From Escherichia coli (GTDB lineage Bacteria; Pseudomonadota; Gammaproteobacteria; Enterobacterales; Enterobacteriaceae), in NCBI RefSeq assembly GCF_017348835.2, contig NZ_CP071375.1: a DNA stretch of 64,000 nucleotides; one strand, 5' to 3'. A program made the position numbers. Below are positions 24,001 to 30,000 of the stretch, piece after piece (positions within the stretch are counted from its first letter, which is position 1; the number at the start of each line of letters is the position of its first letter).

Positions 24001-27000
24001 TTGATAAGACAAGCATCTGGCTGGAAATCTGGATAGCCCGCCGCCGTAGCCGCACGTTGACATAAATTATGAAAACTCTGCGGCATGGCGGGCCACGGTT
24101 TATTTGTTTGCGGATCAATGGGCGAATAGAGATAACCTTGCCGATGGGTCGTCCAGCCCAGATGCCCACAGTTGGTCATCGCCACCGACATGGTATATCC
24201 CCCGGGGGTGACCATCTGGCGAAACGGCGACTGGCTGGCAACGTCATTAATATCGCGGATCAGTTGCTCCGCAGCATTAAAAGCAAAACGCCGTAAAATT
24301 ACCGCACCAGCCGCCAGTGGCTCTTGCCACGGTTCAGCATCGGCAAACAGATCCAACATTACCTCTCCTCATTCTCAGCTTCGCGGCGCAGCAGTTGCGC
24401 TTTGCGCGACGCGCCCCAGCGGTAACCTGAAAGCGATCCATCACCGCGTACTACCCGATGACAGGGTATAACGATAGCCAGCTTGTTGGCGGCACAGGCA
24501 CTTGCAACGGCCCGTACCGCTTTCGGTTTGCCGATGGCGTTAGCCAGTTGCTGATAACTGACGGTTTCACCGCAAGGTATCGTGCGCAGTGCCTGCCAGA
24601 CTTGTTGCTGAAAAGCAGTGCCGCGAATATCCAGCGGTAACGTCAGCGGCGTATCGCGTTGATTGAGGCTGGCGATCACTTCACGCACATGTTGCTGAAA
24701 CATCAGATCGGCAGGCGCGTTGTCGGCAGCGGGAAACATCTGCTGCAACTCGCTGATTAATGTCGCGTCATCATCGCCCAGCAATATCGCGCAAATCCCC
24801 CGCTCGCTTTCTGCCACCAGGCAACGACCCAGCTCACAATCAGCCAGCGCGTAACGCACCGCCAGATTTTCGCCACCGTGACGGAATTGTTTAGCCGTCA
24901 TGCCCAGCGTTTCGTCAGCTTTGCGGTAGTAACTGCTGCTGTCGGGGAATCCGGCGTTAAGAATAGACGTCGTCACGCTCTCCCCTTTCGCCAGCGATTC
25001 GCGCAAACGGCGAGCGCGCCAGGCCTGTTGCCAGGCTTTAGGCGTCATTCCGGTAGTCGCTTTAAACAACCGATGTAGATGAAATGGACTCATCGCCACC
25101 TGGTCAGCTAAGGCTTCCAACGTTACAGGCGTTTCCTGTTCCAGCAGTCGACACGCGTGGGTGATTTTATCCAACCGATGTTGCTGGGCATTGGCTTTAT
25201 CAGGTTGGCAGCGTTTGCAGGGGCGAAATCCGGCGGCGAGTGCCTCGCTGGCATTTGCGTAGAAGGAGACATTTTCCCGCAAGGCATGTCTGGCGCGGCA
25301 AGACGGACGGCAAAAGATGCCTGTGGTGCGCACGGCGAAAACGAATTCGCCGTCGGCATTCGGGTCGCGGGCTAAGACAGATTGCCAGCGTTGATCGTCA
25401 GTTAAGCATGTGGCGTTTTTCATAATCAGCTCCCTGGTTAAGGATAGCCTTTAGTCTGCCCGGTCACCATCACGCAAAAACCAACAATCTTGCGCTTTAA
25501 TTTTTTTCGCTGACAAGGAAGCTTTTAAACTGTGGTGACATCCAGGTTTTAAAGCTATCGCCTTCTTTGGTGATCATATAAACCGCCAGCCCTTCCCGGC
25601 GAACAACCTCTTTGGCTTTCTCCGGCCCGAGTACCATCAAGCCAGTATCCCAGGCATCGGCTTCCAGCGCCGTCGGAGCAATCACCGTCACGGATACCAG
25701 ATTGTGTTCGATGGGACGCCCGGTTTGCGGATCGATAACATGGGAAAGACGTTTGCCGTCCAATTCGTAATAGTTACGGTAGCTGCCAGAGGTGCTAATC
25801 CCATGACCGTTGATATCCACCACAGCCTGAACCGCGTTTTCTTTATCGGTTGGTTTTTGAATCGCTACCCGCCACGGCAGGCCTTCACCGTTCATACCAC
25901 GGCTGTTCAGCGCGCCGCCCACCGACACCAGATAGCGGGAAATCCCTTCCTGCTCCATCAAGCGTGCCAGGTGATCCGCCGCATAACCTTCACCGACGGT
26001 GGAGAGATCGACATATAAATCCGGCAGGTCTTTTTGCAGATATTGCTGATGCGACTGATTAATGACCGTCAGGTGCTGTAAGCCGGTTTTGGCTTTCATC
26101 GCATCGATCTGTTCCTGGCTCGGAATTTGAACCGGCTGTTGTTCCGGGCCAAAGCCCCACAGATTCACCAGCGGCCCGACGGTTATATCCATCGCACCAT
26201 CGGTCCTTGCGCCAATGCGCAGCGAGGTGGTGACGATATCGGCCATCGCTTCACTTACCGGCCACGGCGACAAACTTTGCGAGTCGTTAAAGCGCATCAG
26301 CGCGGAATCTTTTTTATAGGTCGAAAGCAGCTGATCGTCGGCGTCCAGCTGGGTCTGAATCTTTTCTTTAAGTTCGGCACTGCGTTTGGCATCAATGCCC
26401 GGGATGCTGGCACGCCAGAAGGTACCCATGGTTTTGCCTTCAAGAACGGTAACTTCAGTAGCGTGGGTTTTGGCGGGTTGTGGTTTTTGATCGCAACCAA
26501 CAAAGAAGAGCGCGGCAGCCAGCAGTGCCACGCGGGTAAAGCTTATTTCCATACGTGATTATCCTCATGCGAACGGTCGCAAGAGTACACCAAAAAACTG
26601 AGTTTGTACGCTGAAAACAATGAAAAAAGGGCCCGCAGGCCCTTTGTTCGATATCAATCGAGATTAGAACTGGTAAACCAGACCCAGAGCTACGATGTTA
26701 TCAGTGTTGATGCCAGCGTCACGAGTGAACTGGTTGTCGTCCAGCAGGTTGATTTTGTAGTCAACGTAGGTGGACATGTTTTTGTTGAAGTAGTAGGTTG
26801 CACCAACATCAACATATTTCAGGATATCTTCGTCGTCGTAGTTACGAGTACCGATGGTGCCCAGGTTTTTACCTTTAGACTGCAGGTATGCTACAGACGG
26901 GCGCAGACCGAAGTCGAACTGGTACTGAGCAACAGCTTCGAAGTTCTGTGCTTTGTTCGCCCAACCCAGGGAACCTACGCGAGTTGCGTTGTAGGTCTGG

Positions 27001-30000
27001 GTGTACTGAGCAGCCAGGTAGATGTTGTTAGCATCGTATTTCAGACCACCAGTGTAGGTTTCAGCACGGTCGCCGTTACCGATGTAAGCAGCGGTGTTCT
27101 GAGCATCAGTACGTTTGGAGCTGGAAACTGCAGCACCGATACCGAAGCCTTCGTAATCATAAGTGATAGATCCGCCGACACCGTCGCCATTCTGACGCAG
27201 AGCACCACGACCATTGTTGGTCATGCCTTCGCCGCTTACGCTACCATTTTTGCCCTGGTACTGAACAGCAAAGTTCAGGCCATCAACCAGCCCGAAGAAG
27301 TCAGTGTTACGGTAGGTCGCGAAGCCGTTACCACGCTGCTGCATGAAGTTGTCAGAACCGTAAGTGTCACCACCGAATTCTGGCAGTACGTCGGTCCAGG
27401 AAGTTACGTCGTAAACAACGCCGTAGTTACGACCGTAGTCGAAAGAACCAACATCCTGGAATTTCAGACCTGCGAATGCCACACGGGTCCAGGAGTTTTC
27501 TTTGTTGTCTTCAGAGGTATTGCCCTGGATCTGATATTCCCACTGGCCGTAACCGGTCAGCTGGTCAGTAACCTGAGTTTCGCCTTTGAAACCAAGACGT
27601 ACATAGGTCTGGTCGCCGTCTTCTGACTTGTTGTCAGAGAAATAGTGCAGGCCGTCTACTTTACCGTACAGATCTAATTTGTTGCCGTCTTTGTTGTAAA
27701 CTTCAGCAGCGTTTGCTGCGCCTGCTACCAGCAGAGCTGGGACCAGGAGGGACAGTACTTTAACTTTCATGTTATTAACCCTCTGTTATATGCCTTTATT
27801 TGCTTTTTTATGCCACTGCATACTGATTAACCCTCATTAATCAGTCGGCAAGTCCATTCTCCCCAAAAATGCAGAATAATCCAACACGAATATGATACTA
27901 AAACTTTTAAGATGTTTCATTTATCGCTATAGATGTTTTAAAATGTAAATGCAAGGGAACTTTTTAAGATTATTGCGGAATGGCGAAATAAGCACCTAAC
28001 ATCAAGCAATAATAATTCAAGGTTAAAATCAATAACTTATTCTTAAGTATTTGACAGCACTGAATGTCAAAACAAAACCTTCACTCGCAACTAGAATAAC
28101 TCCCGCTATCATCATTAACTTTATTTATTACCGTCATTCATTTCTGAATGTCTGTTTACCCCTATTTCAACCGGATGCCTCGCATCCGGTTTTTTTTACC
28201 CTTCTTTACACACTTTTCATTATTCTGTGCTACCAGAGAAAAACTATAACGCTTGTTAACTATTTCACAAATAATTAACATCAGCATAATTTCCAGCAAT
28301 TTTCGTTTATTTGCAATTAATTTCGTTGGGCTTTTCGTAGGTTATTTGTACAGCAAAATGGCGCTTGTACATCTATTTCCCCCCATACAGGATGATAAAT
28401 ATCACAGGAGAATAGAGAATCATCAATCAGGTAAGAGTCTGGAATTTCACACTGTACCCTTTATACTGCCCTATCACTTCGCGAAGTTTTAACAGGTCAT
28501 AAACACGAATGCGTCAGAAAGAGACAACGGCCACGACCCGCTTTTCACTCCTACCCGGGAGCATTACCCGCTTCTTTTTACTGTTGATCATTGTGTTACT
28601 GGTGACGATGGGTGTAATGGTACAAAGCGCCGTTAACGCCTGGCTGAAAGATAAAAGTTACCAGATTGTCGACATTACCCACGCAATCCAAAAGCGCGTC
28701 GATACCTGGCGTTACGTGACCTGGCAGATCTACGACAACATTGCCGCGACGACCTCCCCCTCCTCCGGCGAAGGTTTACAAGAGACGCGCCTGAAACAGG
28801 ATGTCTACTATCTGGAAAAACCGCGCCGCAAAACGGAAGCGTTAATCTTTGGCTCTCACGACAACTCAACGCTTGAGATGACTCAACGGATGTCCACTTA
28901 TCTGGATACATTGTGGGGCGCAGAAAATGTACCGTGGTCAATGTATTACCTGAATGGTCAGGATAACAGTCTGGTACTGATCTCAACCCTGCCCCTCAAA
29001 GATCTCACCTCCGGATTTAAAGAATCGACCGTCAGTGACATTGTTGATTCACGTCGTGCAGAGATGTTGCAACAGGCCAACGCCCTCGATGAACGCGAAA
29101 GTTTTTCTAACATGCGCCGCCTGGCCTGGCAGAACGGTCATTACTTTACCTTGCGTACTACCTTTAACCAGCCAGGACATCTGGCAACGGTCGTGGCTTT
29201 TGATCTGCCGATTAATGATTTGATCCCACCGGGTATGCCGCTGGACAGTTTCCGCCTTGAGCCAGACGCGACGGCAACGGGAAACAATGATAATGAGAAA
29301 GAAGGGACGGATAGCGTCAGTATCCACTTTAACAGTACGAAGATTGAAATCTCCTCGGCACTCAACTCTACTGATATGCGCCTGGTCTGGCAGGTTCCTT
29401 ATGGCACCTTATTGCTGGATACGTTGCAAAACATTCTGCTGCCACTGCTGCTGAACATCGGTTTGCTGGCGCTGGCGTTATTTGGCTATACCACATTTCG
29501 CCATTTCTCCAGTCGCAGTACAGAAAGTCTACCCAACACGGCGGTCAATAACGAATTGCGCATTTTACGGGCAATCAATGAAGAGATAGTCTCACTGCTG
29601 CCGCTCGGCCTGCTGGTTCACGATCAGGAATCGAACCGCACTGTCATAAGTAACAAAATTGCCGATCATTTGCTGCCGCATTTGAATCTGCAAAACATCA
29701 CCACCATGGCGGAACAGCATCAGGGGATTATTCAGGCGACGATCAATAACGAGCTGTATGAGATCCGCATGTTCCGCAGCCAGGTCGCGCCGCGCACACA
29801 AATTTTCATTATTCGCGATCAGGATCGCGAAGTGCTGGTAAACAAGAAACTCAAGCAGGCGCAGCGTCTGTATGAGAAAAACCAGCAGGGGCGGATGACC
29901 TTTATGAAAAACATTGGCGATGCGCTGAAAGAACCTGCACAGTCCCTGGCGGAGAGCGCGGCTAAACTCAACGCCCCGGAAAGCAAACAACTGGCGAATC

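Follow-up and report, generated by a model that had tools for sequence, protein, structure and literature searches.

OmpC is a homotrimeric, cation-selective channel controlled by EnvZ/OmpR and MicC. Beck et al. (2016, PLoS Pathog; PMC5056734) described over 220 OmpC proteins, distinguished by their combinations of the loops L4, L5 and L7, and treated these loops as modular. Chen et al. (bioRxiv 10.1101/2021.09.21.461324) recognised hypervariable regions in L1, L2, L4, L5 and L7, which form a mosaic generated by local recombination within a conserved framework. The published explanation for this diversity is diversifying pressure on the OmpC loops by phages, CDI and immunity (PMC5056734; bioRxiv 10.1101/2021.09.21.461324). 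The ompC gene considered here lies in a stretch of 64,000 nucleotides of an Escherichia coli genome (hereafter, the window). Its pattern equals that of Chen et al. and is one further example of it, with nothing substantive different (bioRxiv 10.1101/2021.09.21.461324). Like other mosaic hypervariable outer-membrane genes (ompC, ompF, ompA, lamB, fhuA), it has variation confined to loops and recombined combinations of them. We conclude that the allele is very probably a reshuffle of old loop modules in a functional porin gene of a non-K-12, pig-associated lineage. It is an ordinary rather than an unusual allele, because ompC loops are known to vary and recombine across E. coli.

The coding sequence is intact and occupies positions 26664..27770 on the minus strand, with 368 codons plus a stop in one ATG-to-stop reading frame. 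Its identification as ompC in the preliminary description is confirmed, and both peptide stretches quoted there lie inside this reading frame. The protein scored 761.1 bits against the NCBIfam profile NF007841 'porin OmpC' (cutoff 484) and 470.7 bits against Pfam PF00267 (Porin_1), while it stayed below the cutoffs of the OmpF profile (493 vs. 583) and the PhoE profile (461 vs. 599). Matching records of 100% identity also carry the annotation ompC. The signal peptide (codons 1–21, 27708..27770, minus strand) is the same as in K-12 according to the alignment, and the solved mature PDB chains start at query residue 22. At the other end the protein closes with LVYQF, so that the aromatic YQF end is present.

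The neighbourhood is likewise that of K-12. The gene order apbE (ftp), ompC, micF, rcsD is as annotated in K-12 and in the pig isolate PE164. The ompC-micF intergenic region (27771..28103), which we take to be regulatory and to hold the OmpR-binding sites, shows about one mismatch per 200-nt window relative to K-12. The full-length micF sRNA at 28104..28197 on the plus strand (116.8 bits for Rfam RF00033, whose gathering score is 79) is divergent from ompC, as in K-12. Directly 3' of the ompC stop, a consensus scan picked up a terminator-like hairpin with a T-run (26626..26645, minus strand).

An AlphaFold2 model, computed from an alignment of 64 diverse porin sequences, reached a mean pLDDT of 91.9. 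Its order of strands and loops fits the published OmpC topology of a 16-stranded antiparallel barrel with eight extracellular loops and short turns. Foldseek aligned the model with the K-12 structure (PDB 2J1N) at a TM score of 0.96 and an rmsd of 1.8 Å. From this superposition, L3 is predicted to fold inward into the barrel. The loop boundaries used below were taken from DSSP on the predicted model rather than from a crystal structure.

Compared to K-12 ompC (NC_000913.3 b2215, fetched as reference; protein NP_416719.1), the window gene is 92.8% identical at the DNA level, and the two are thus not the same allele. At the protein level, 348 of 372 aligned columns are identical (~93.5%). The pairwise alignment contains 15 substitutions, an additional D in L2, a deletion of GFTS in L4 and an insertion of TIGT in L7; a multiple alignment counted 16 substitutions, because it placed the L7 indel differently. 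The divergence is confined locally to the ompC gene: 200-nt windows within ompC are 89–96% identical to K-12, whereas most flanking windows are 97.5–100% identical. It had been proposed that the differences fall in the surface loops of a conserved barrel, and this holds both in the alignment and when they are mapped on the model superposed on 2J1N. The extracellular loops L1, L2, L4 and L7 contain 21 of the 25 amino-acid-changing columns, against 4/248 elsewhere (Fisher p = 5e-8). The other four are conservative changes in strands (V57M, A213G, V215I and V293L, with the window residue first), and V57 opens the strand after L1. L3, L5, L6 and L8 have the same amino acids as in K-12, and so do the signal peptide and every periplasmic turn.

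Each of the loops can be compared with previously described variants. L1 (codons 46–55, 27606..27635, minus strand) has S49/E50 where K-12 has D/V, as judged from the alignment and the model. This is the region of the first stretch quoted in the preliminary description, and its K-12 counterpart is SDNKDVDGDQTYMRLGF. The second stretch corresponds to L2 (codons 83–92, 27495..27524, minus strand), in which TSEDNKEN replaces the SAE-NENN of K-12 (counterpart GNSAE-NENNSW) by four substitutions and an inserted Asp. L2 of K-12 contains Glu66 of the mature protein, which latches the trimer to an Arg of the neighbouring L3 (PMC5056734). The matching Glu is kept in the window L2 (E87 of the precursor), and the extra Asp adjoins it. 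L3, the constriction loop with the PEFGG motif (codons 117–145, 27336..27422, minus strand), has zero amino-acid changes relative to K-12.

Further along the protein, L4 (codons 173–196, 27183..27254, minus strand) differs from K-12 by four substitutions and is four residues shorter. L5 (codons 220–234, 27069..27113, minus strand) is identical to K-12 in its amino acids, even though no other loop varies as much across our panel of 20 alleles. L7 (codons 302–313, 26832..26867, minus strand) is four residues longer than in K-12 and has one or two substitutions. These three loops match exactly types c6 (L4), a1 (L5) and i (L7) of Beck et al. (S2 Table, PMC5056734), although the accession of the window protein, WP_053882128, was not found in the text of their supplements. 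The L7 type i is also that of UPEC 536. Beck et al. classify neither L1 nor L2, the two loops to which the preliminary description had drawn attention (PMC5056734).

Among solved structures, the closest chain by sequence is OmpC of O157:H7 EDL933 (9WCB; 728.6 bits, 95% identity), in complex with the central tail fibre gpJ of phage A8. The two proteins share the short L4 type, bar one residue (G in the window, E in EDL933), and a long L7. EDL933 OmpC differs, however, in L1 (DKSV..M), L2 (SAE-NENN), L5 (SPLY instead of TAAY) and L7 (VING instead of TIGT). Therefore, the phage-receptor specificity of EDL933 OmpC is not transferable to the window allele. A literature search on the 9WCB complex returned no paper describing the loops that gpJ contacts.

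The window protein also shares fold and family with porins linked to resistance, namely the OmpC structures 2XE1, 2XE2, 2XE3, 2XE5 and 2XG6 and the OmpK36 structures 6RCK and 7PZF. Judging from their PDB titles, the former are OmpC mutants from the clinic that are associated with multidrug resistance, and the latter are OmpK36 chimeras in which GD, TD or D is inserted. The OmpK36 insertions sit in L3 and narrow the pore. In contrast to such variants, L3 of the window protein equals that of K-12, and changes occur only in L1, L2, L4, L7 and the four conservative strand positions.

Of 5426 complete E. coli genomes, only two, both pig-derived, contain the exact DNA allele, and the exact protein (WP_053882128.1) occurs on 331 public contigs. 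The L1-L2 module was found at ≥99% DNA identity in 917 of the 5426 genomes, with a single genome at 95–99%; the L7 module was found at ≥99% in 432 genomes, with three at 95–99%; and the L4 module at ≥99% in 363 genomes. The identity distributions of the L1-L2 and L7 modules are thus bimodal. Of 5430 matching records, 3386 have less than 95% DNA identity to the window allele. K-12 carries merely one ompC allele among many, and most strains can be expected to differ from it at this locus as a matter of course.

Recombination within the gene is evident from the 20-allele panel, which was chosen to span a range of identities to the query and is not a random sample. In this panel, 52% of the columns were variable in extracellular loops, 8.5% in strands, 3% in turns and 3% in L3. 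The panel gave an Rmin of 38 with 36% of site pairs incompatible, and the observed value of a PHI-like test was reached in 0 of 2000 permutations. Individual alleles illustrate the patchwork. TB06052 differs from the window ompC by 0, 11 and 0 nt in the 5', middle and 3' thirds. EC71 and strain 54 are identical to it in the 5' third but have 23–28 nt differences plus indels in the 3' third, while TW10590 and A17 show 17–27 nt differences in the 5' third and only 2–3 nt in the 3' third. Furthermore, synonymous differences cluster together with non-synonymous ones. The shared modules, this clustering and the recombination signals therefore indicate standing polymorphism throughout the species rather than lineage-specific adaptation.

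These results suggest the following scenario. L1, L2, L4 and L7 hold sequence modules other than those of K-12. These modules are very probably old, discrete variants that circulate throughout E. coli and are shuffled among strains by short-tract homologous recombination inside ompC. The window allele is one such combination, with an 'SE..V' L1, a 'TSEDNKEN' L2, L4 of type c6, L5 of type a1 and L7 of type i. Since the barrel, L3, the turns, the signal peptide and the regulatory surroundings are essentially those of K-12, channel function and regulation are probably the same as well. Phages, CdiA toxins and antibodies recognise the loops, and hence, judging from the literature, the combination is likely to decide which of them can bind the strain. 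For this OmpC, its expression, its assembly into trimers, its conductance and its specificity as a receptor are all predictions. Public databases and papers already contain the allele, its loop types and the mechanism that generates such alleles, so the value as a discovery is small and the practical value modest. In practice, the type of the ompC loops is of predictive use when phages are chosen for a given strain or its CDI susceptibility is judged, and the window allele (L4 c6, L5 a1, L7 i, with non-K-12 L1-L2) should not be assumed to be a K-12-like receptor.

The preliminary description had called the loop differences consistent with selection by phages or immunity in a lineage other than K-12, which our analysis supports only in part. 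The strain is not K-12. Positions 14001–51640 of the window are 100% identical to the pig isolate PE164. Diversifying pressure is indeed the published explanation, but no amino-acid change is private to the window lineage, and phage, CDI and immunity are not distinguishable as agents from sequence. Pairwise Nei-Gojobori estimates, which ignore recombination, gave region-averaged dN/dS values of 0.32–0.35 for the loops and 0.04–0.06 for the framework. L7 alone exceeded 1 (1.49, on very few sites). Because the averaged loop dN/dS is below 1, positive selection is not demonstrated by these data.

An alternative explanation is neutral drift under relaxed constraint, by which the loops simply tolerate change without adaptive meaning. 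The low loop dN/dS would fit this explanation, as would the model, in which the loops face the solvent and are unneeded for barrel integrity. However, drift would not readily account for variation that, in place of a continuum, takes the form of a small number of discrete modules, far diverged from each other and bimodal in their identities. It is also at odds with the synonymous rates: loop dS (0.45–0.48) is about three times the framework dS (0.13–0.15), which itself exceeds that of most flanking genes, and up to ten times the flank dS. The elevated loop dS suggests long-lived alleles, maintained by balancing or diversifying selection, or import. In addition, experimental loop swaps alter CDI susceptibility (PMC5056734), and site-model analyses report positive selection in ompC, as they are cited in PMC5056734. 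Hence, we consider neutral drift unlikely.

Import of the loop modules from another enterobacterial species would explain why dS between modules (0.35–0.58) is far above the divergence of the flanking genes from K-12 within E. coli (0.007–0.106). Yet, the modules are abundant within E. coli. Moreover, degenerate patterns for the 10-residue L2 peptide and the 12-residue L1 peptide had no match in 100,044 species-representative genomes, a set with one genome per species in which an ancient donor or a non-representative strain could be missed. As controls, the L2 and L1 patterns matched the window at 27487–27518 and 27598–27632, respectively. Import from another species therefore seems quite unlikely.

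Recent adaptation by point mutation in the pig-associated lineage, for instance as phage escape or lower antibiotic permeability, might be read from the presence of the exact DNA allele in only two pig-derived genomes. This rarity mirrors a rare lineage, however: the adjoining 25 kb is 100% identical in the same two genomes only, and the next genome has 98.8% identity. There is no private non-synonymous change, and the same protein is found in strain 2EC1 as well as on the public contigs. The pore framework, L3 included, is also as in K-12, unlike the resistance variants (2XE1-2XG6, 6RCK). Recent lineage-specific adaptation is thus very unlikely and largely refuted. Decay or silencing of the gene, with the divergence reflecting loss of function, is extremely unlikely, since, even though a frameshifted ompC exists in E. 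coli (strain Esc28), the window gene has a full-length reading frame with signal peptide, PEFGG and C-terminal YQF, a framework dN/dS of ~0.05, a terminator-like hairpin, and a promoter region and micF almost identical to K-12.

The reshuffling of old modules leaves room for two more specific readings. We think it rather improbable that the receptor profile set by this combination of loops is distinctive and of consequence for the pig-associated lineage; if true, it could mean resistance to T4-like or other OmpC-dependent phages, or to CdiA toxins targeting OmpC/OmpF. The source lineage carries T3SS effectors. The other reading concerns an internal tract of ~200 bp (codons 134–200), whose differences from the closest alleles are all synonymous and which may mark a very recent, datable recombination event. 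Even if true, either reading would only add a further case to a phenomenon that is already known.

Strain 2EC1 has the same protein with 14 synonymous differences, 12 of which fall within codons 107–200. On the basis of the ompC allele panel only, we rejected as the source of this cluster both an exotic donor and gene conversion from one of the paralogues, such as ompF, phoE or ompN. Ordinary within-species patchwork explains the cluster, because all variants are shared with panel alleles except GGG at codon 160, the one synonymous site private to the window allele in the panel. The alleles that share these variants include those of ETEC6335 and O157 NE92.

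The ompC gene of this strain, identified by ORF scan, is complete: it runs from ATG to stop over 368 codons on the minus strand (26664..27770). Its protein scored 761 bits with the NCBIfam profile NF007841 'porin OmpC' (cutoff 484), remained below the cutoffs of the OmpF and PhoE profiles, and matched Pfam Porin_1. The neighbours of ompC are the same as in K-12, with apbE/ftp (25497..26552, minus strand) on the downstream side and rcsD (28509..31181, plus strand) on the upstream side, both according to the annotation of K-12 and of PE164, a near-identical E. coli isolate from pig. 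A full-length micF (28104..28197) is divergent from ompC, and a terminator-like hairpin follows the ompC stop codon (26645..26626). This is a standard, intact gene that carries one of many known loop combinations. By contrast, ompC is frameshifted in strain Esc28 (locus L015), and in strain XH989 (locus L017) an IS1 transposase gene ends ~300 bp upstream of ompC; these two strains exemplify porin loss or regulatory disruption.

The preliminary description noted a divergence from K-12 ompC in predicted surface-loop regions. Alignment with the retrieved sequence of K-12 MG1655 ompC confirmed that the two genes are not identical, with a DNA identity of 92.8%. Both loop stretches quoted earlier are present in the window (17 and 12 residues) and differ from their K-12 counterparts, SDNKDVDGDQTYMRLGF and GNSAE-NENNSW, respectively. 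In total, window OmpC differs from K-12 by 15 substitutions and three indels (+D, -GFTS, +TIGT); the multiple alignment places the L7 indel differently and gives 16 substitutions. A further ~30 codon differences are synonymous. The divergence is local, as 200-nt windows within ompC are 89–96% identical to K-12, against 97.5–100% for most flanking 200-nt windows.

Our results also bear out that the differences lie in the surface loops. An AlphaFold model of window OmpC, built on an alignment of 64 diverse full-length porins (mean pLDDT 91.9, pTM 0.87), superimposes on K-12 OmpC (2J1N) with a TM of 0.96 and an rmsd of 1.8 Å, and its strand and loop order is that of the published topology. Relative to K-12, the extracellular loops L1, L2, L4 and L7 carry 2, 4, 4 and 2 substitutions, respectively, with one indel column in L2 and four each in L4 and L7. 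The strands show only four conservative substitutions (V57M, A213G, V215I and V293L, window residue first), and the constriction loop L3, L5, L6, L8, the periplasmic turns and the signal peptide show none. Thus, 21 of 119 extracellular-loop columns are changed versus 4 of 248 other columns of the mature protein (Fisher p = 5e-8). Glu66 (mature K-12 OmpC numbering), through which L2 latches onto the neighbouring protomer (Beck et al., PMC5056734), is kept. Compared to K-12, window OmpC likely presents a different receptor surface to phages, CDI systems and antibodies, while its pore properties are likely unchanged.

All measurements on window ompC fit the established picture. A survey of 2707 E. 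coli OmpC proteins found >220 distinct sequences (Beck et al. 2016, PMC5056734). Its authors drew up a catalogue of types for L4, L5 and L7, made the case for modular loops, and demonstrated with grafted loops that recognition by CdiA-EC536 is set by L4 and L5. By the types in S2 Table of that study, window OmpC has L4 c6, L5 a1 and L7 i; L5 a1 is the K-12 type and L7 i that of UPEC 536. Hypervariable regions of OmpC, located in L1, L2, L4, L5 and L7, are brought together by local recombination, and attachment of phage T4 has been tied to L1, L4 and L5 (Chen et al., bioRxiv 10.1101/2021.09.21.461324). Among solved structures, the closest chain is OmpC of EDL933, bound to a phage tail fibre (9WCB).

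Of 5426 complete E. coli genomes, only the two pig-derived PE164 and F2_81 carry the exact ompC DNA allele. This rarity reflects a rare lineage, because the adjoining 25 kb is equally restricted, with 100% identity to PE164 and F2_81 only (next genome 98.8%). The encoded protein (WP_053882128.1) is not rare: its exact sequence, under the name 'porin OmpC [Escherichia coli]', is present on 331 public contigs, and the ompC of strain 2EC1, at 14 synonymous differences from the window allele, encodes it too. Across the species, ompC identity to the window allele ranges from 88.7% to 100%, with K-12 in the lower third of the ranked alleles. At ≥99% DNA identity, the L1–L2, L4 and L7 modules occur in 917, 363 and 432 genomes, respectively, and the identity distributions of the L1–L2 and L7 modules are sharply bimodal.

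Window ompC was assembled by recombination out of this species-wide polymorphism. Loop variants are variously combined across a panel of 20 alleles picked by their spread of identity to the window allele. Counted per third of the gene (5' / middle / 3'), nucleotide differences from window ompC are 0 / 11 / 0 in TB06052, 0 / 9 / 23 in EC71, 0 / 9 / 28 in Strain 54, 27 / 20 / 2 in TW10590 and 17 / 15 / 3 in A17; the 3' third also has 6 gap codons in EC71 and 8 in Strain 54. In the same panel, 36% of the pairs among 119 informative sites failed the four-gamete test, Rmin was 38, and all 2000 permutations gave a higher value of a PHI-like statistic than observed. Codons 134–200, which differ only synonymously from the closest alleles, look like a short internal recombination tract. 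The sole variant private to the window lineage in this panel is synonymous (codon 160, 27291–27293; GGG versus GGT in all other alleles).

An alternative explanation, offered in the preliminary description, is phage or immune selection on a non-K-12 lineage. That description is right about the site of the differences. Nei-Gojobori dN/dS is higher in the loops (0.32–0.35) than in the framework (0.04–0.06), exceeding 1 only in L7 (1.49, few sites). By themselves, these data do not demonstrate positive selection. dS is also elevated in the loops (0.45–0.48 versus 0.13–0.15 in the framework), compared to 0.007–0.106 for the flanking genes against K-12. Together with the panel mosaics and recombination signals, this points to loop modules that are old, deeply diverged and shifted about by recombination; the loop differences are not recent point mutations in the window lineage. 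To imply lineage-specific selection goes too far. A search of 100,044 species-representative genomes with degenerate patterns for the L1 and L2 peptides, both of which worked in controls, gave no matches, and hence, within the limit of one genome per species, there is no evidence of a foreign donor.

The window is 100% identical to PE164 at 14001–51640 and 99.86% identical beyond. At ~51638–51640 it lacks an IS3-family element of ~1.3 kb that is inserted in the tail-fibre gene of the PE164 prophage. Given this missing insertion and the 99.86% identity, the window represents a very close relative of PE164, not that record. The degraded lambdoid prophage (50700–62000), inserted at the DUF1175 (yfaT-like) gene, contains an integrase (60885–61955, +), excisionase, NinE/NinG, an antiterminator, a holin, a truncated lysozyme gene, a Lom fragment and tail-fibre fragments; it also carries the type III secretion effector genes nleA (48784–50025, +) and an nleG-family gene (50719–51366, −), which suggest an attaching-effacing (EPEC/STEC-like) background. 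All these genes were named after the annotation of PE164, and their ORFs were confirmed in the window.

At 35052–37008, atoS and atoC look truncated or fused, with two ORFs of 489 and 187 aa that overlap; PE164 is annotated there with an atoS that lacks the C-terminus and, next to it, a helix-turn-helix gene that lacks the N-terminus. This two-component system, AtoSC, is probably inactive. The alpha-2-macroglobulin family gene (yfaS-like, 43555–48069) is identical in PE164, where it is annotated as a pseudogene containing an internal stop. REP/BIME-type repeat elements gave three tandem Rfam naRNA4 (RF02564) matches at 19777–20085 (+) and two between rcsB and rcsC (31858–32048, −), and a tRNA-Pro gene with a GGG anticodon is located at 2766–2842 (+).
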